A stretch of 64,000 nucleotides of DNA, from positions 2,709-66,708 of the forward strand of contig JBBINR010000007.1 in NCBI GenBank assembly GCA_037443785.1, written 5' to 3'. Positions within the stretch are counted from its first letter, which is position 1; every line of letters begins with the position of its first letter. Positions 16,141 through 21,751 of the stretch are shown piece after piece. This DNA is from Ignavibacteriales bacterium (GTDB taxonomy: Bacteria > Bacteroidota > Ignavibacteria > UBA10030 > UBA8401). Position numbers and translations under genes: made by a program. The notes below the pieces were generated by a model. The model ran no database searches and was not told the DNA's origin. It was given only the letters and a program-made list of their open reading frames with translations.

Positions 16141-17283
16141 TTAATTCTTATTTTTCTCCATCATCTTCACAAACTTCGAGAAGAGATAATCGCTGTCGTG
16201 CGGACCGGGCGATGCTTCGGGATGGTATTGAACGCAGAAGAGCGGCAACTTTTTATGCTCAAAGCCTTCCACAGTCTGGTCGTTCAAATTCAAATGTGTC
16301 AGTTCTACTTGTGATTCATCCATCGATTTCCAGTCAACGGCAAAGCCGTGATTTTGGGAGGTAATTTCAATCTCGCTCGTTTTTAAATTCTTCACAGGAT
16401 GATTTGCCCCGCGATGTCCGAATTTCAACTTGTATGTTTTTCCGCCGAGCGCTAACGCCAGCAACTGATGGCCGAGACAAATTCCGAAGATCGGTTTCTT
16501 CCCCACCAACTTCTTGATGTTCATGATAGCATATTTCACAGCATCAGGGTCGCCGGGGCCGTTAGAAAGAAATATTCCATCGGGATTCATTGCCAAAACT
16601 TCTTCAGCGGAAAAACTTGCCGGAACGACAGTGAGATCACATCCATAGCTGGTCAATCGGCGAAGAATATTTTGTTTCACACCATAATCGAACACAACAA
16701 CATTGTATTTCTTTTCAGCCTTCTCTCCATTTTTTGTTGCAAGAGCAAAAGGAGTTTTATCGACTTCACTCCATCGATATTCTTTCGATGTCGTCACTTT
16801 CTTTGCGAGATCAAGCCCGGTCATTTCAGGAGATTTTTTTGCTTTGGCAACTAATGATGTGTCATCAAGGTCAATCGTAGAAATTACCCCGCGCATCGCT
16901 CCTTGATCGCGAAGGATCTTCGTCAGCATTCGTGTATCAATTCCCTGAATTGCGAGAATGTTATTTTTCTTTAACCAATCACCAAGGGACGATCGCGAGC
17001 GCCAGTTACTGTGAAAATCAAAATATTCTTTCACCACAAATCCGCTGACTTGCGGTTTCACTGATTCAACATCATCACTGTTCACACCGTAATTGCCGAT
17101 CTGTGTATATGTCATTGTCACGATTTGTCCAGCGTACGACGGATCGGTAAGAATCTCCTGATATCCCGTGATACTCGTGTTAAAGCAGACTTCCCCGGTC
17201 ACTTCACCTTCGGCACCAAAATGCTCACCGGTAAATACTGTTCCATTTTCTAATGCAAGCTTTGCTATCATATATCCATTCAT
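16141..17283 (-). CDS. carA: Carbamoyl-phosphate synthase small (glutamine amidotransferase) subunit.
   Basis: 380 aa with the N-terminal CPSase small-chain domain ([34 protein letters not shown]) and GATase catalytic [10 protein letters not shown]...HGFAV. No carB is adjacent. Confidence 0.93.
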
Positions 17284-17464
17284 TCGTCATTGCGAGAAGC
17301 GAAGCGGCAAAATAATTCCCTAAAGATTTTACCGTCCCGATACGTTCGGAACCCGCAATAACGCGATGATAAAAAAAATCTTCGCTGAATTAAAAATACG
17401 AAATTTTTTCCATTTGAAGAAATACTTCTTGACTAATTTCACGCAAATGTGTTTATTTAAGTAG

Positions 17465-17680
17465 TCTTAGAGGAGCGGTACACACAAGTACGCACATCGA
17501 AAGTGAACAACTTGATGACATGTGCAGAAAAGGTTCGCAATAAGTACCGCCGAAAGTTCATAGGGAGTTTCCTCTGTTAACTTGGGATGCAAGTAAAGAG
17601 CTTGCATACTGTTGTTTCGACATAACGAAACAAAGCGCTAACGACCATCTGCACATAGTTGTTTTGTACCGCTCGTAATG
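17465..17680 (+). ncRNA. Candidate lysine riboswitch (L-box) aptamer in the dapB leader.
   Basis: AGAGGAGCGGUAC at the 5' end pairs with GUACCGCUC at 17666..17674 (P1). Internal CCGCCGAAAG and CUGUUAAC match the L-box CGCCGAAG and CUGUCA cores. There are several internal perfect hairpins (atgcaag/cttgcat, ttgtttcg/cgaaacaa). Lysine-biosynthesis genes lie directly downstream. Confidence 0.5.
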
Positions 17681-17696
17681 CGGTCATATCAATCAA

Positions 17697-17731
17697 AAGT
17701 AGAGAGTCCTAAGCGCACCTCTACTTTTTTC
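17697..17731 (+). terminator. Intrinsic terminator / attenuator hairpin of the dapB leader.
   Basis: gtagagag...ctctac stem followed by tttttt at 17725..17730, 18 nt before the dapB ATG. Confidence 0.65.
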
Positions 17732-17748
17732 GTTTTAAAAGGATTGAT

Positions 17749-18495
17749 ATGAACATTGCACTTATCGGTTACGGAAAAATGGGCAAAGAAATCGAACAAA
17801 TTGCCGTCGAACGAGGACATTTGATCGTTGCCAAATTTGACATCGATTCTCCCTTGCCATCGCCAAATTCACCATTATACGGTTCAACCCCCATTGATTG
17901 CTGTATCGATTTTAGTACGGCATCCGCAGTCGCGGTTAATGTAACAACTCTCGTACAAAGCGGAATTCCATTGGTCATTGGAACCACAGGATGGTCCGCA
18001 GAGATGGAAAACATTCGGAATATTGTAAAAACCAATAATGGTTCGGTTGTCTATTCATCCAATTTTTCCCTTGGCGCAAATATCATGTTCCGGCTTGTAG
18101 AAGCCGCTTCGGTAATTTTCAATCATTACGATCAGTATGATATTTCTGTTCACGAAACGCATCATATGATGAAGAAGGATGCGCCAAGCGGAACCGCATT
18201 GACGATTGCGAATAAAGTATTGACGCACATAGATCGAAAGAAAAAAATTACATCTACTACTCCTTCTAAAGAAGAATTATTTGTTTCAAGTTCTCGCGTT
18301 GGCACAGTGGTTGGCGAACATGCAGTACGATTCAATTCTCTCGCAGACGACATTGTTATTTCACACACAGCGCACAATCGAAGCGGATTTGCATTAGGCG
18401 CTGTTCTCGCTGCCGAATGGATTGTCGACAAAAAAGGATTGTATTCGTTCGAGGAGTTATTGTGGGACCAATACAATACAGAAATTAAAAAATAA
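17749..18495 (+). CDS. dapB: 4-hydroxy-tetrahydrodipicolinate reductase.
   Basis: N-terminal NAD(P)-binding IGYGKMGK and the DapB signature HETHHMMKKDAPSGTAL. 248 aa. Confidence 0.92.
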   Translation: MNIALIGYGKMGKEIEQIAVERGHLIVAKFDIDSPLPSPNSPLYGSTPIDCCIDFSTASAVAVNVTTLVQSGIPLVIGTTGWSAEMENIRNIVKTNNGSVVYSSNFSLGANIMFRLVEAASVIFNHYDQYDISVHETHHMMKKDAPSGTALTIANKVLTHIDRKKKITSTTPSKEELFVSSSRVGTVVGEHAVRFNSLADDIVISHTAHNRSGFALGAVLAAEWIVDKKGLYSFEELLWDQYNTEIKK

Positions 18496-18526
18496 AAATA
18501 TCACTTATCATTTAAGGAATACCATT

Positions 18527-19429
18527 ATGACACCAAATTTTTCATTTCGCGGAGCGGCAACGGCATTAGTTACACCGATGCTTCCAAACGGAGATGTAGA
18601 CACTGAAGCACTTCAACGCCTCGTTGAATTTCAAATCGAAAATGGAATCAACGCGTTGGTTCCCGTCGGAACAACCGGTGAAAGTGCAACACTCTCCCAT
18701 CCTGAACATCATCATGTTATGGACGTTGTTGCCGAGCAAGCAAAAGGCCGCGTACCGATTATCGTTGGTGCCGGAAGTAATTCAACACGTGAAGCAATTT
18801 CGTTAACGCAACATGCGCGCGCAATCGGTGCAAATGCCGTGTTGTCTGTCGCTCCATATTACAATAAACCAACACAGCAAGGATTCTTTGAGCATTACAA
18901 AGCAATCACGGAAGCGGTCGATATTCCGGTTTTCGTGTACAATGTTCCCGGGCGGACAGGAAGTAACATCAATGCTGAAACAACGCTGCGCCTCGCTGAA
19001 CTGCCGGGCATTGCAGGAATTAAAGAAGCATCGGGAAATATTTCTCAAGTAATGGAAATTCTTCGGCATCGCCCAAATAATTTCGTTCTTCTCTCCGGTG
19101 ATGATGCTTTAACACTGCCGATGATGGCATGTGGTGCAGATGGAGTAATTTCCGTTGTCGCAAACGAAGTTCCAAAAGATTTTTCGACAATGGTTCGGTT
19201 CTGCCTCGAGGGAAATTTCATTGCAGCACGAAAAATTCATGAACGATTGCTCGACTTGATGAATTTGAATTTTATGGAATCAAATCCAATACCGGTAAAG
19301 TCCGCCCTTGCCATGATGGGAATGATCAACGAAGCGTATCGGCTCCCGTTAACGCGAATGTCGATGGATCATCGATTAAAATTACGAAGAGTACTTGAAG
19401 AGCTTTCATTGCTGGGACAACACGCATGA
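18527..19429 (+). CDS. dapA: 4-hydroxy-tetrahydrodipicolinate synthase. Start assigned to the internal MTPNFSF methionine rather than the track's 18422.
   Basis: DapA-family motifs [10 protein letters not shown] and [10 protein letters not shown], plus the active-site lysine region. About 300 aa. Confidence 0.9.
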
Positions 19430-20262
19430 CAACACCGGATCTTCGCGGTCAAATACTAAAGGTCTTTGGCGATTCAGGAACTTCGAAGGCAAAAGCCCTT
19501 GGTCTCTTCCGAAAATTTTTAGATCAGCTTGATTCAGGAAAGATCAGATCAGCAGAAAAAATCGACGGAACATGGGTTGTTCATGAATGGGTAAAAAAAG
19601 GAATCCTTCTCGGATTTCGTTTGGGACAGCTCAAAGAAATTCCGCGAGGTTTGCCATTTAAATTTTTTGATAAAGATACGATTCCTTTAAAGAAAATTTC
19701 CGCAAAAAATAATATTCGCGTGGTCCCCGGCGGATCATCGATTCGCAAAGGTGCCTACGTTGCTTCTTCGGTCATTGTCATGCCACCCGCTTACATTAAT
19801 ATCGGCTCGTACGTTGATGAAGGAACCATGGTCGATTCGCATGCGCTTGTCGGCTCCTGCGCTCAAATCGGAAAGCGGGTTCACATTAGTGCAGCTTCAC
19901 AAATTGGCGGCGTGCTCGAACCGATTGGTGCGTTGCCGGTTATTATTGAAGACGATGTTTTGATTGGCGGCAATTGCGGAATTTATGAAGGAACAATTGT
20001 CAGCAGGCGTGCCGTGATTGCTACCGGTGTTACATTAACGGCTTCCACTCCAGTGTATGATATCGTCAATGAAACAATCATAAGGAAGAACGAAAACGGC
20101 TCATTAATCATCCCGGAAAACGCGGTTGTTGTTGCCGGCACAAGAAAGATTGATTCTTCCTTTGCACGAAATAACGGATTACACTTGTATACACCGCTGA
20201 TCGTTAAATATCGCGATGAAAAAACGGACGCAAAGACTGCACTGGAAGAAAGCTTGCGGTAA
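19426..20262 (+). CDS. dapD: 2,3,4,5-tetrahydropyridine-2,6-dicarboxylate N-succinyltransferase (long hexapeptide-repeat form).
   Basis: Left-handed beta-helix hexapeptide repeats ([41 protein letters not shown]...) with a DapD-like N-terminal domain. It overlaps the dapA stop by 4 bp. Confidence 0.8.
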
Positions 20263-21639
20263 TTATTTTTCTTTAAGATTATACTGCTGGATTTTTGTGT
20301 AGAGAGTTTTAAGGCTGATGTCTAAAATTTTTGCAGAAAGATTTTTGTTCCATTTGCTGTTTTCGAGAACGGCGGCAATATGCTGGCGTTCTAATTCCTG
20401 AATTGACACCGCACTGCCAATAATTCCGTTACCTTCTTTTTGTGCCGCAGATTGGACGCCAAGCCGTTGGGGCAAGGCAAGATCTTTGGTGCGAATAATT
20501 TCTTCCGAAGAAAGAATGATTGCCCGCTCCAGCACATTTTCCAATTCACGAATATTACCGGGCCAGTCATATTCCATTAACGCCTGCAGTGCATCCGGAT
20601 GTAAAGATTTTTTTGCCTTTGTTTTATTTTTCCGCTCAAGAATACTTTGCACAAGAATTGGAATGTCGTCTTTTCTCTGCATAAGCGACGGCAAATGAAG
20701 TGTGATAACATTCAACCGGTATAAAAGATCTTCGCGAAATCTTCCTTCTTTTACTTCCTCCAAAAGATTTTTATTCGTAGCAGAAATAAGACGAATGTCT
20801 GATTTTAAAGTTTTATTTCCGCCAACGCGCCGGTACTCCCCGGTTTGAATGAAGCGGAGCAATTTCGGCTGAAACACCGGGCTGATTTCCCCAATTTCAT
20901 CCAAGAAAAGTGTGCCGCCGTTTGAGATCTCCACTAATCCCTGCCGCATAACTTGCGCATCGGTGAATGCGCCTTTTTCATGACCGAATAATTCACTCTC
21001 AATCAACGTATCAGGAATAGAAGCGCAGTTGAGTGCGACAAATGGTTTTTCGTTTCGTGGAGAATTTTTGTGAAGAAAATTTGCAAATAACTCTTTTCCG
21101 GTTCCGCTTCCTCCTTCAATAAGAACCGTAGAGTCTGTAGGAGCAACTTTACTTGCCAGCTCAATTACTTTTACAAATTCTGCACTTTCCCCAACAAGGT
21201 GTGACGATTGAGCAAGTCTCGACAACTCACTCTTCATTACTTTATTTTCAATCACCAATGTCCGTTGATCTAACGCTCGCTCGAGAAGTGAAACGAGTTC
21301 ATCGATCGAATACGGCTTCGTGAGATAATAGAATGCACCGTTTTTCATGCAATCAACCGCCATCCGAACATCATCAACACCGGTAAGCATAATAACCTGC
21401 ATATCGATATAGTGCTCTTTGATGTACTTTAAGACTTCAATGCCGTCAACGCGCGGCATTCGTACATCGAGAAGTGCTACATCCAAAGAATGTTCCTGCA
21501 GGCAATTGATCGCCGCCGCACCATCTTCCGCCGTAACAACAGTGTGCCCTTCGCCGGCAAGAACACTTTCTAGCGTAGATCGAAAATCGACTTCATCATC
21601 AGCGACAAGAATTTTTGCATTTATTTTTTTCTTTGCCAT
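20263..21639 (-). CDS. Sigma-54-dependent response regulator (NtrC family) with REC, AAA+ and Fis-type HTH domains. It has no adjacent kinase.
   Basis: REC domain (ILVADDE...D at the phospho-site). The sigma-54 interaction module GESAEFVKVIELASKVAPTDSTVLIEGGSGTGKELFANFLH and the ESELFGHEKGAFTDA motif. C-terminal HTH. Start taken at MAKKKIN (21639). Confidence 0.88.
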   Translation of the reverse strand: MAKKKINAKILVADDEVDFRSTLESVLAGEGHTVVTAEDGAAAINCLQEHSLDVALLDVRMPRVDGIEVLKYIKEHYIDMQVIMLTGVDDVRMAVDCMKNGAFYYLTKPYSIDELVSLLERALDQRTLVIENKVMKSELSRLAQSSHLVGESAEFVKVIELASKVAPTDSTVLIEGGSGTGKELFANFLHKNSPRNEKPFVALNCASIPDTLIESELFGHEKGAFTDAQVMRQGLVEISNGGTLFLDEIGEISPVFQPKLLRFIQTGEYRRVGGNKTLKSDIRLISATNKNLLEEVKEGRFREDLLYRLNVITLHLPSLMQRKDDIPILVQSILERKNKTKAKKSLHPDALQALMEYDWPGNIRELENVLERAIILSSEEIIRTKDLALPQRLGVQSAAQKEGNGIIGSAVSIQELERQHIAAVLENSKWNKNLSAKILDISLKTLYTKIQQYNLKEK

Positions 21640-21751
21640 ATGGTGACAAAAATATACCTTTTTATCAATTGACCTGCAAACACAGCTCATCGCTTGCAAA
21701 AATTTTTATAATATGATACATTATACGGTATGTTAAACTTTTGAGAACTGC

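Follow-up and report, generated by a model that had tools for sequence, protein, structure and literature searches.

A lysine riboswitch with a conserved terminator and a predicted start-codon clamp precedes dapB-dapA-dapD in an Ignavibacteria-like Bacteroidota lineage

The divergent spacer between carA and dapB in the window (the whole stretch of 64,000 nucleotides that was analysed) holds an element which, as judged from its agreement with the covariance model of the family, is a canonical lysine riboswitch (L-box) and not a divergent variant. A lysine riboswitch with an intrinsic-terminator attenuator in front of dapB-dapA-dapD had been proposed in an earlier note on this DNA, and the proposal is borne out by the match to Rfam family RF00168, by conserved and covarying helices and by the identities of the genes (Table 1). 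We consider it very likely that the leader acts as a canonical L-box OFF switch on the operon, working through termination, a clamp on the start codon as backup and a double strand exchange. The class of element is known and the novelty is low, the riboswitch being an added member in an uncultured Ignavibacteria-like Bacteroidota lineage. For the placement of the lineage, MutS comparisons gave identities of 79-86% with proteins labelled 'Bacteroidota bacterium' and of 66-73% with proteins from Ignavibacteria MAGs.

Table 1. Features of the carA/dapB spacer and the flanking genes (positions within the window).
Feature	Positions	Strand	Partner, basis or remark
carA (carbamoyl-phosphate synthase small subunit)	16141..17283	-	TIGR01368, 534.9 bits; divergent neighbour
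-35 box TTGACT, putative leader promoter	17429..17434	+	TTGAC[TA], at constant distance to the aptamer in 10/10 relatives with upstream sequence
AT-rich -10-like box TTTATTTA	17452..17459	+	T[TA]ATT[AG], 18-19 nt past the -35 box in all relatives
Lysine riboswitch aptamer, five-helix junction P1-P5, 189 nt	17460..17648	+	RF00168
P1 5' strand GUCUUAG	17464..17470	+	partner CUAACGAC 17638-17645, C17642 bulged
P2 5' strand GCGGUAC	17475..17481	+	partner GUACCGC 17544-17550; Rfam alignment
P2a	17492-97/17520-25	+	GCACAU/AUGUGC, perfect hairpin
P2b hairpin	17501-04/17510-13	+	AAGU/ACUU, loop GAACA
P3 hairpin	17554-65/17572-83	+	loop GUUU(C) 17567-71
P4 hairpin	17584..17610	+	perfect AUGCAAG/CUUGCAU 17587-93/17601-07
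P5 hairpin UUGUUUCG/CGAAACAA	17612-19/17626-33	+	perfect stem
Antiterminator 5' strand GCGCUAACGACCAUCUGC (J5/1, P1 3' strand, linker)	17635..17652	+	partner 17699-17716
GUACCGCUC, 'P1' arm of the earlier note	17666..17674	+	overlaps 5' arm of linker hairpin
Anti-start box UCAUAUCAAUC	17684..17694	+	partner GAUUGAUAUGA 17742-17752; encloses terminator, covers AUG
Intrinsic terminator, stem AAAAGUAGAG / CUCUACUUUU	17695..17730	+	14-nt partly paired loop; U6 at 17725-30
CCUCUA, terminator 3' strand	17717..17722	+	ON-fold partner UAGAGG 17468-73, replaces P1 as junction closer
Shine-Dalgarno AAGGA	17739-43	+	sequence
dapB start codon AUG	17749-51	+	sequence
Regulated operon dapB-dapA-dapD	17749..20262	+	gene calls on the same contig and NCBIfam matches
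dapB	17749-18495	+	NCBIfam profiles
dapA	about 18527-19429	+	NCBIfam profiles
dapD	19426-20262	+	NCBIfam profiles

The spacer measures 465 bp from the carA start at 17283 (-) to the dapB ATG at 17749 (+), close to the 460 bp given before, and carA itself is not part of the switch. The three downstream genes match the NCBIfam profiles TIGR00036, TIGR00674 and NF008808, each above the cut-off, and the 3' end of the aptamer lies 101 nt upstream of them, which makes this a lysine biosynthesis leader. That the spacer encodes a structured RNA, also part of the earlier note, is supported by the predicted folding energy of the + strand between 17460 and 17748, which is -87.7 kcal/mol and stands at z = -4.6 relative to dinucleotide-shuffled sequences. 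The leader is probably driven by a promoter with the conserved TTGACT box, whose -10-like box directly follows a TG at 17450-51, and from its position transcription would start at about 17461-17466, which is the base of P1; a consensus scan of the leader for sigma-70 promoters called none.

Scanning with RF00168, a check that the earlier note had suggested, yielded a match at 17460-17648 (+) with 78.2 bits, the gathering score of the family being 30 bits (E = 9.8e-19 in the 64-kb window, i.e. 1e-18 when rounded). The alignment covers model positions 1-182/182, end to end and without truncation. The element had been described as about 215 nt long and as deviating from the textbook L-box, perhaps as a lineage-specific variant; neither description stands, as the aptamer has 189 nt and the model is matched over its full length at this score. 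All segments of the lysine-model core (AGAGG-GC, GCCGAA, UGG, ACUG and AG-GCUA) were found by cmscan and are invariant in 10 leaders. Two L-box-like core strings had been singled out before, the first of which, CCGCCGAAAG, is indeed present at 17547-56, while the second, CUGUUAAC at 17574-81, turned out to be simply the 3' strand of P3 rather than core sequence; the junction that is conserved is ACUGU, at 17608-12. The perfect internal hairpins that had been noticed are P4, P5 and P2a. For P1, the Rfam alignment gives 17465-70/17638-43, which we extended to 17464-70/17638-45, reading the register of the bulge from the sequence. The P2-P2a-P2b region contains AGUA and GAUGA, motifs that at the sequence level are typical of loop-E / K-turn; on the same level AGUA (17487-90) and GAAAAGG are invariant, and GAUGA (17514-18) is replaced by GGUGA, GACGA, AGCGA, UGCGA or AACGA in relatives.

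By family membership, lysine is probably the ligand. We give hardly any credence to a drift of the aptamer towards another ligand, or to a protein or leader peptide as the regulator in place of lysine: the conserved junction nucleotides all agree with the lysine model and are invariant among relatives, the context is purely that of lysine (DAP) biosynthesis, and no second Rfam family matched the leader in cmscan. The short ORFs of the spacer are neither lysine-rich nor conserved and have no obvious ribosome-binding site, and leader-peptide attenuation was rejected as a candidate.

The earlier note had also proposed a comparison of orthologous leaders, and in these the helices are conserved and covary. 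The comparison set comprised 12 loci from 10 distinct relatives with DapB sequences 47-67% identical (one relative, P0003, was left out of the leader set), and the layout of carA diverging from the leader and dapB-dapA-dapD is common to 10/10 relatives. RF00168 matched all 12 related loci with 59-80 bits. In the aptamer alignment 93.7% of the cells are paired, as opposed to 33-39% when slid, and compensatory changes occur at 30 of the 55 base pairs, a covariation that was equalled by 0/500 shuffles. An RNAalifold consensus of 10 leaders recovers P1-P5, with compensatory changes in 29 of 49 pairs. Such changes were seen in 3/8 pairs of P2, 7/7 of P2a, 3/4 of P2b and 6/9 of P5; the top three pairs of P1 are invariant in the relatives, which leaves P1 itself uninformative for covariation. 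A kissing interaction of L2 with L3 would pair GAAC (17505-08) with GUUU (17567-70), amounting to only 4 pairs in the window. Its columns are 92.9% paired versus 30-54% when the partner was slid, one pair changes from G-C to A-U in 3 sequences, and its covariation score was reached by 6/500 shuffles.

More distant dapB loci were searched in three ways. With the leader as query, nhmmer gave no match beyond L001 among 161 dapB loci, and among 20 of the distant loci compared with Rfam, L001 was the sole match. A clade-specific covariance model (R1) detected nothing past L001 in 160 more distant dapB loci (DapB 41-49% identical), a model that distant L-boxes could escape. Because these searches returned only L001, the leader appears to be confined to one clade.

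A different closing helix had been proposed for the element in the earlier note, in which GAGCGGUAC (17473-81) pairs with GUACCGCUC as P1 of a larger, divergent L-box and GUACCGC is a mere alternative partner of the same 5' strand. This 9-bp duplex is perfect and appears in the MFE of the whole leader, and with -19.1 kcal/mol it is more stable in the window than its shuffled controls (z = -4.4). However, the full-length Rfam match puts P1 and P2 elsewhere, and P2 (17475-81/17544-50) covaries in the relatives. GUACCGC does exist, at 17544-50 and not at about 17556, but its role is that of the true 3' strand of P2. Against shuffled linkers the corresponding duplex was significant in none of the 10 relatives (z +0.8 to -1.8), and the GUACCGCUC arm overlaps the 5' half of a hairpin within the linker (ACCGC 17668-72 / GCGGU 17680-84), which is predicted in 11/11 leaders and is kept in all relatives with other sequences. 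The long helix would moreover destroy the lysine-binding junction. We regard the larger L-box as very improbable, and GAGCGGUAC/GUACCGCUC was refuted as a conserved P1 by its lack of significance in the relatives.

The terminator that had been placed shortly before dapB was confirmed as a hairpin followed by U6, with 18 nt between its end and the AUG. Across 11 leaders 97.3% of its cells are paired, hairpin and U5-7 tract are kept throughout, and 2 pairs (4 cells) are compensatory, giving a covariation score that was reached by 0/500 shuffles. The stem is short, with 6 core pairs plus A-U pairs, and the consensus scan missed this terminator because its loop exceeds 8 nt. The sole 'terminator-like' call of that scan was P4, a false positive, since P4 is an aptamer hairpin.

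Complementary to the terminator 5' half and loop is an antiterminator strand that includes the 3' side of P1, and 14 of 18 positions pair between 17635-52 and 17699-716; the local fold has -29.8 kcal/mol (z = -4.75). For a transcript ending at the U-tract the antiterminator is the unconstrained MFE, with -85.4 kcal/mol, whereas aptamer and terminator together, free of ligand, have -74.4 kcal/mol. The MFE includes it in 10/11 relatives for transcripts extended far enough to contain its 3' strand, and in 7/11 for those that end at the U-tract. Of its cells 74% pair, versus 22-50% in slid controls. The strands are almost invariant, with a single compensatory change and a shuffle control that was not exceeded, and for this reason the support for the antiterminator consists in conserved complementarity. 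The MFE at the U-tract end also contains the pairing of UAGAGG with CCUCUA, and an equivalent duplex of 6-8 bp (-8 to -10 kcal/mol) is found in 10/11 leaders. On the basis of these folds the platform is most likely a classic OFF switch by terminator and antiterminator, at which transcription would end upstream of dapB.

Around the terminator, the anti-start box and its partner can form a clamp of 11 perfect pairs across the AUG. The duplex has -16.0 kcal/mol in the window (z = -5.0; 0/300 shuffles as good), and the local fold of terminator plus clamp has -29.5 kcal/mol (z = -4.2). The clamp is significant in 7/11 leaders, namely in the window and in six others at z -2.6 to -6.3; L171, L172 and L173 have a weak clamp or none. 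Column-wise covariation was unusable here because the register of the clamp is shifted by 5 nt in L163 and L164, and shuffle and partner-swap tests were used instead: across lineages cognate partners pair with -12.0 kcal/mol versus -8.9 kcal/mol for swapped ones (11/20000 permutations). The probability that the AUG is unpaired is 0.00 with the terminator forced (OFF) versus 0.46 with the antiterminator forced (ON); for the Shine-Dalgarno itself no extra opening was predicted in the ON-state ensemble. Covarying in about 7/10 lineages, the clamp suggests a dual control of transcription and translation, in which hiding of the start codon would probably serve as a backup to termination.

Control could alternatively reside in translation only, if the hairpin at 17695-17730 were an inefficient terminator in the host and the lysine-bound fold acted mainly via the AUG clamp. 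The short stem and large loop, which had gone uncalled by the consensus scan, would agree with this, as would the strong and covarying clamp and the fact that Gram-negative lysine riboswitches, e.g. lysC of E. coli, act on translation. But hairpin and U-tract occur in 11/11 leaders with compensatory changes, and the terminator is kept also in the three leaders without a convincing clamp. In three leaders, furthermore, 37-73 nt lie between terminator and start codon, a spacing that is sensible only for a terminator. We consider control by translation only to be unlikely.

For the favoured OFF switch, in which termination is backed up by the clamp, the following sequence of events can be proposed. 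On binding lysine the five-helix aptamer would close P1, whereby the antiterminator 5' strand would be locked away and the terminator could therefore form and stop transcription short of dapB. In transcripts that read through, UCAUAUCAAUC (17684-94) would clamp GAUUGAUAUGA around the terminator, leaving the AUG buried. When lysine is absent, P1 would open and a double strand exchange would follow, GCGCUAACGACCAUCUGC pairing with the terminator 5' half and loop and UAGAGG with the terminator 3' strand. Since these pairings cross those of terminator and clamp, the antiterminator would exclude both, so that the operon would be transcribed with its start codon free.

According to the folding model, the full-length leader is not explained by this simple two-state picture. 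Its predicted global MFE is a third fold, at -100.6 kcal/mol versus -90.5 kcal/mol for the ON fold, in which terminator and clamp are combined with long-range pairing of the linker to P2/P2a strands (in the window 17649-56 and 17666-74 with 17520-27 of the P2a 3' side and 17473-81 of the P2 5' side). A three-state switch might be read from this, in which the long-range anti-aptamer conformer would lock ligand-free full-length mRNA in a silent form with terminator and clamp, serving perhaps as a timer or to shut expression off irreversibly. Besides the MFE of the window, terminator together with aptamer-core:linker pairing in 8/11 relatives would fit such a switch, as would a linker whose match to the 3' side of P2a is better than in shuffles, at z = -3.3 in the window, -3.5 in L001, -3.0 in L166 and -2.3 in L164. 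Strands and positions vary by lineage, however, and half of the relatives show nothing; a free 50-nt linker usually finds some partner in a 190-nt RNA, the UCUGC/GCAGA part of the complementarity results incidentally from the antiterminator strand, and a P2/P2a that has already folded is unlikely, on kinetic grounds, to be displaced while transcription proceeds. An 'anti-P2a' pairing of the linker, significant in 3-4/11 leaders and at inconsistent positions, was retained only as an unexplained observation. A third, silencing state seems unlikely to us, and equally improbable is the fuller proposal that double strand exchange, a coevolving clamp and a slow anti-aptamer conformer silencing the ligand-free full-length mRNA act together in a leader with more than two states. 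If true, this three-part reading would mean that dapBAD expression carries its own timer, in an uncultured Ignavibacteria-like clade without earlier catalogued lysine riboswitches.

The value of the two-state OFF switch described here lies mainly in annotation, as it would place dapB-dapA-dapD of an uncultured Ignavibacteria-related Bacteroidota clade under direct lysine feedback at the RNA level. In addition, the taxonomic range of lysine riboswitches is modestly extended relative to the 2017 survey (PMC5584792), which is without Bacteroidetes or Ignavibacteria. DapB gene calls that had been extended too far on related metagenome contigs were corrected, and the compact natural arrangement of a terminator within a start-codon clamp could, if confirmed, be of use in dual-level riboswitch engineering. 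The understanding of lysine riboswitch function is unchanged.

The L-box of B. subtilis lysC and other lysine riboswitches of Firmicutes use terminator/antiterminator platforms. With these the leader described here shares the five-helix aptamer with its conserved core and also the OFF logic, in which the antiterminator would be formed by the P1 3' strand and the terminator 5' half. It differs from B. subtilis lysC in its host, a Gram-negative, Ignavibacteria-like Bacteroidota MAG, in the predicted ON fold, where UAGAGG of the P1 5' side additionally pairs with the 3' half of the terminator, and in the extra clamp helix that would hide the AUG. The lysC riboswitch of E. coli controls translation initiation as well as RNase E-dependent decay; it is not known to possess an intrinsic terminator, and mRNA decay rather than termination forms its second level. 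The two have in common the aptamer class, a Gram-negative host and, in the model proposed here, more than one level of control per ligand-bound fold, whereas a terminator, in place of mRNA decay, would provide the additional level here.

Lysine-riboswitch DAP operons were catalogued in 2785 complete genomes, with a contrast drawn between Gammaproteobacteria and Firmicutes (Mukherjee et al., 2017; PMC5584792), and the text of that survey has 0 occurrences of Bacteroidetes, Ignavibacteria or Chlorobi. As in the operons listed there, one lysine riboswitch stands ahead of an operon with dapB, dapA and dapD; unlike them, the operon consists of dapB-dapA-dapD only and is divergent from carA. Expression platforms with 'dual transcription and translation attenuation' were described by Barrick and Breaker (2007; PMC2258182), the criterion being a terminator hairpin located <=10 nt from the start codon or a ribosome-binding site in its 3' arm. 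Similar to these, the predicted ligand-bound fold contains a terminator and would occlude the translation start of read-through transcripts. In contrast to them, the terminator ends 18 nt upstream with the Shine-Dalgarno outside the hairpin, and it is a separate box 5' of the terminator that is predicted to pair with the spacer and the AUG, in a clamp that encloses the terminator.

The leader in front of dapB-dapA-dapD carries the lysine riboswitch RF00168, which was the sole above-threshold Rfam match in the 64-kb window (17460-17648 (+); 78.2 bits, gathering score 30, E = 9.8e-19, model positions 1-182 of 182); a permissive Rfam scan of 17300-17800 on both strands returned no other family. 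All consensus blocks (UAGAGG-GCG, AGUA, GAUGA, GAAA-G, CGCCGAA, UGGG, ACUG and AG-GCUA) were matched in the covariance-model alignment, and the aptamer is a standard member of this long-known family without atypical features. The proposal in the earlier note of a lysine riboswitch and attenuator acting on dapBAD is supported, while its suggestion of a divergent variant finds no support given the full-length match. The element and all strings quoted there are real, but the helix model drawn from them is wrong: the 3' arm assigned to P1, GUACCGCUC (17666-74), lies outside the aptamer, and since the covariance-model helices place GUACCGC (17544-50) in P2, the supposed alternative partner is the true P2 3' strand. 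Among the quoted cores, CCGCCGAAAG is truly conserved (P2 3' strand and J2/3), but CUGUUAAC is merely the P3 3' strand. P1 itself we would read as GUCUUAG (17464-70) paired with CUAACGAC (17638-45), with C17642 bulged.

Features of the carA/dapB region (window coordinates)
Feature	Position	Strand	Sequence or basis
carA	16141-17283	minus	divergent neighbour
-35 box	17429-34	plus	TTGAC[TA]; spacing constant in every relative that has upstream sequence
-10-like box	17452-59	plus	AT-rich; spacing constant in every relative that has upstream sequence
P1	17465-70 / 17638-43	plus	covariance-model alignment
P2	17475-81 / 17544-50	plus	GCGGUAC / GUACCGC; covariance-model alignment
P2a	17492-97 / 17520-25	plus	covariance-model alignment
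P3	17554-65 / 17572-83	plus	covariance-model alignment
P4	17584-94 / 17600-10	plus	covariance-model alignment
P5	17612-18 / 17627-33	plus	covariance-model alignment
Antiterminator	17635-52 / 17699-716	plus	GCGCUAACGACCAUCUGC (J5/1, P1 3' strand, linker) / GUAGAGAGUCCUAAGCGC; 14/18 positions paired
Anti-start box	17684-94	plus	UCAUAUCAAUC; just upstream of terminator; conserved
Terminator stem	17695-704 / 17719-28	plus	AAAAGUAGAG / CUCUACUUUU; U6 17725-30; sequence, conservation
dapB	17749-18495	plus	
dapA	about 18527-19429	plus	
dapD	19426-20262	plus	

The divergent spacer between carA and dapB measures 465 bp, and the Logan assembly of SRR11582159 contains the same contig. A gene call for this contig starts dapA at 18527 (300 aa); a mechanical ORF (TTG 18422, 335 aa, to 19429) overlaps dapB and is over-extended. 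A 4-nt overlap between the dapA stop and the dapD start (19426) points to translational coupling. A gene for a sigma-54-dependent response regulator (20263-21699, minus) is convergent with dapD, and the two abut at 20262/20263 with zero intergenic bases, leaving no space for a terminator after the operon. As the consensus promoter scan called no promoter at the leader, we infer one from the conserved boxes, with transcription probably starting at the foot of P1. All relatives also share an A-rich box (AAAAATAC[AG]AAA or GAAATA[CT]) 8-25 nt upstream of the -35 box (about 17390-17425 in the window), which may serve as an UP element or belong to the promoter/regulatory region of the divergent carA.

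Among GTDB representative genomes and JGI metagenomes, the DapB relatives reached at most 41-49% identity, and only one of these 160 dapB loci (L001, DapB 47% identical) carries the riboswitch; no other was found by Rfam (20 loci) or nhmmer (all loci), and a clade-specific covariance model run on all 160 again recovered L001 alone. Closer DapB relatives (50-67% identical) came from a large protein collection; contigs were used for nine of them, and the tenth, P0003, was represented by a gene table only, which gives the same synteny. The arrangement of divergent carA, leader and dapB-dapA-dapD was present in 12/12 loci with DNA (nine distinct lineages), each with an RF00168 match of 59-80 bits. 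L001 brings these nine lineages to ten distinct relatives. Compared with proteins labelled 'MAG: Bacteroidota bacterium', the window MutS shows 79-86% identity, and with those of Ignavibacteria/Ignavibacteriales MAGs 66-73%. Going by these database labels, the host belongs to Bacteroidota and is an uncultured relative of Ignavibacteria.

An alignment of ten full-length aptamers yielded an RNAalifold consensus with P1-P5 recovered and compensatory changes in 29 of 49 pairs. Including the kissing loop, 93.7% of cells were paired against 33-39% with partners slid, and double changes occurred in 30 pairs, values matched by 0/500 shuffles. The L2-L3 contact (GAAC 17505-08 / GUUU 17567-70 in the window) was 92.9% paired across the set, with a G-C to A-U switch in one pair. 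This helix conservation and the RF00168 match are the opposite of the refuting outcome set in the earlier note, and clearly favour a lysine riboswitch.

Each of the 11 leaders (window and ten relatives) finishes with a hairpin and then a U5-7 tract. The terminator stem is 97.3% paired across them, two pairs show compensatory changes, and no shuffle (0/500) scored as high in covariation. The consensus scan did not call it because its loop is 14 nt long; the only terminator-like site called in the region, the P4 hairpin with a U-rich stretch after it (17587-17607), is a false positive, distinct from the actual terminator hairpin at 17695-17730.

The 5' half of the terminator partners with the 3' end of the aptamer, not with the helix of the earlier note. 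The unconstrained minimum free energy (MFE) structure of the transcript ending at the U-tract is this antiterminator (-85.4 kcal/mol, against -74.4 kcal/mol for ligand-free aptamer plus terminator); it also pairs UAGAGG (17468-73) with CCUCUA (17717-22), a type of duplex present in 10/11 leaders, and leaves P2-P5 intact. The local fold (17630-17722) reached -29.8 kcal/mol (z = -4.75, 32% of the ensemble). Folded singly, 10/11 leaders have the antiterminator in their MFE once its 3' strand is out, and 7/11 at the U-tract end. Its columns are 74% paired (22-50% in slid controls), and as the strands are nearly invariant, with one compensatory change, its support is conserved complementarity rather than covariation. 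The platform is predicted to follow textbook L-box logic, elaborated into a four-strand exchange: lysine would close P1 and withhold the antiterminator strand, so that the two P1 strands pair with each other and likewise the two terminator strands, while in the ON state the P1 3' strand would pair with the terminator 5' strand and the P1 5' strand with the terminator 3' strand.

The anti-start box can form a perfect 11-bp duplex with GAUUGAUAUGA (17742-52), which comprises the spacer after the Shine-Dalgarno sequence and the AUG (17749-51). This clamp duplex stands out against shuffles in the window (z = -5.0) and in L001 (-4.2), L166 (-3.9), L168 (-4.2), L169 (-3.4), L170 (-6.3) and L163 (-2.6); it is weak in L164, L171, L172 and L173, although L164 nevertheless has a 9-bp match. 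The strands vary in step between lineages (CAAUC/GAUUG, CAUUCU/AGAAUG, UAUUCAUCA/UGAUGAAUA), and cognate strands paired better than swapped ones (mean -12.0 versus -8.9 kcal/mol; 11/20000 permutations as good, in a statistic that ignores phylogeny). The terminator-plus-clamp fold (17660-17760) reached -29.5 kcal/mol (z = -4.2). Clamp pairs cross antiterminator pairs, so the two folds are mutually exclusive, and the AUG is unpaired with a probability of 0.00 when the terminator is forced and 0.46 when the antiterminator is. A clamp that excludes the antiterminator and buries the AUG inclines us to the reading that transcripts reading through with lysine would also be silenced translationally. 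In the predicted ON fold, GUUG (17658-17661) pairs with CAAU (17690-17693) of the anti-start box, lengthening the linker hairpin, which may keep the box off the start codon; L166 is predicted to have a comparable pairing (AUGAU/AUCAU), though not every relative does.

The long-range helix GAGCGGUAC/GUACCGCUC of the earlier note is a real 9-bp complement and forms part of the MFE fold of the entire leader, alongside CUGCACAU (17649-56) / AUGUGCAG (17520-27) and the terminator. Such terminator folds with some long-range pairing of the linker to aptamer-core P2/P2a strands are the global MFE of 8/11 full-length leaders (window, L001, L166, L168, L170-L173), and the linker is significantly complementary to the P2a 3' strand in 3-4 leaders, at differing positions. 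Only in the window does the duplex formed with the P2 5' strand reach significance (z = -4.4); in the ten relatives z spans +0.8 to -1.8, without significance in any. The GUACCGCUC arm shares bases with the 5' side of a linker hairpin (ACCGC 17668-72 / GCGGU 17680-84) predicted at that site in 11/11 leaders with differing sequences. A functional, aptamer-disrupted third conformer seems improbable, and the fold may instead reflect how folding programs treat a free 50-nt linker.

In metagenome contigs of the relatives, public DapB gene calls of 275 and 288 aa (L164/L165 1501-1605, P0003) start inside the riboswitch/terminator, annotation errors that arose because the leader went unrecognised; the correct start is the conserved ATGAATATC, at L164 position 1606. 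Between terminator and dapB start, L163 (about 1445-1490) carries an insertion, a perfect inverted repeat of 16 bp (ACCAGTGAACTGTTCG...CGAACAGTTCACTGGT), perhaps a REP-like or mobile element; at that place the sister contig L162 shows a run of N.

In Firmicutes, Thermotogae and Fusobacteria, lysine riboswitches are well documented before operons that include dapA, dapB and dapD, and Bacteriovorax has one before lysC-dapB-dapA-dapD-lysA (PMC5584792). Covering 2785 complete genomes, that survey names Firmicutes, Gammaproteobacteria, Tenericutes, Actinobacteria, Fusobacteria, Thermotogae, Acidobacteria and Beta-/Deltaproteobacteria, with no mention of Bacteroidetes or Ignavibacteria (PMC5584792), and our literature search found no paper on a lysine riboswitch in either. 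The element is of an already known kind, and its taxonomic placement is a modest extension of the known range. The 'dual transcription and translation attenuation' of Barrick and Breaker has the ribosome-binding site in the terminator 3' arm and the terminator ≤10 nt from the start codon (PMC2258182); with 18 nt between terminator and start codon and a separate clamp, the window leader falls outside that definition, but it appears to work alike, through start occlusion by the clamp, whose geometry is a small variation.
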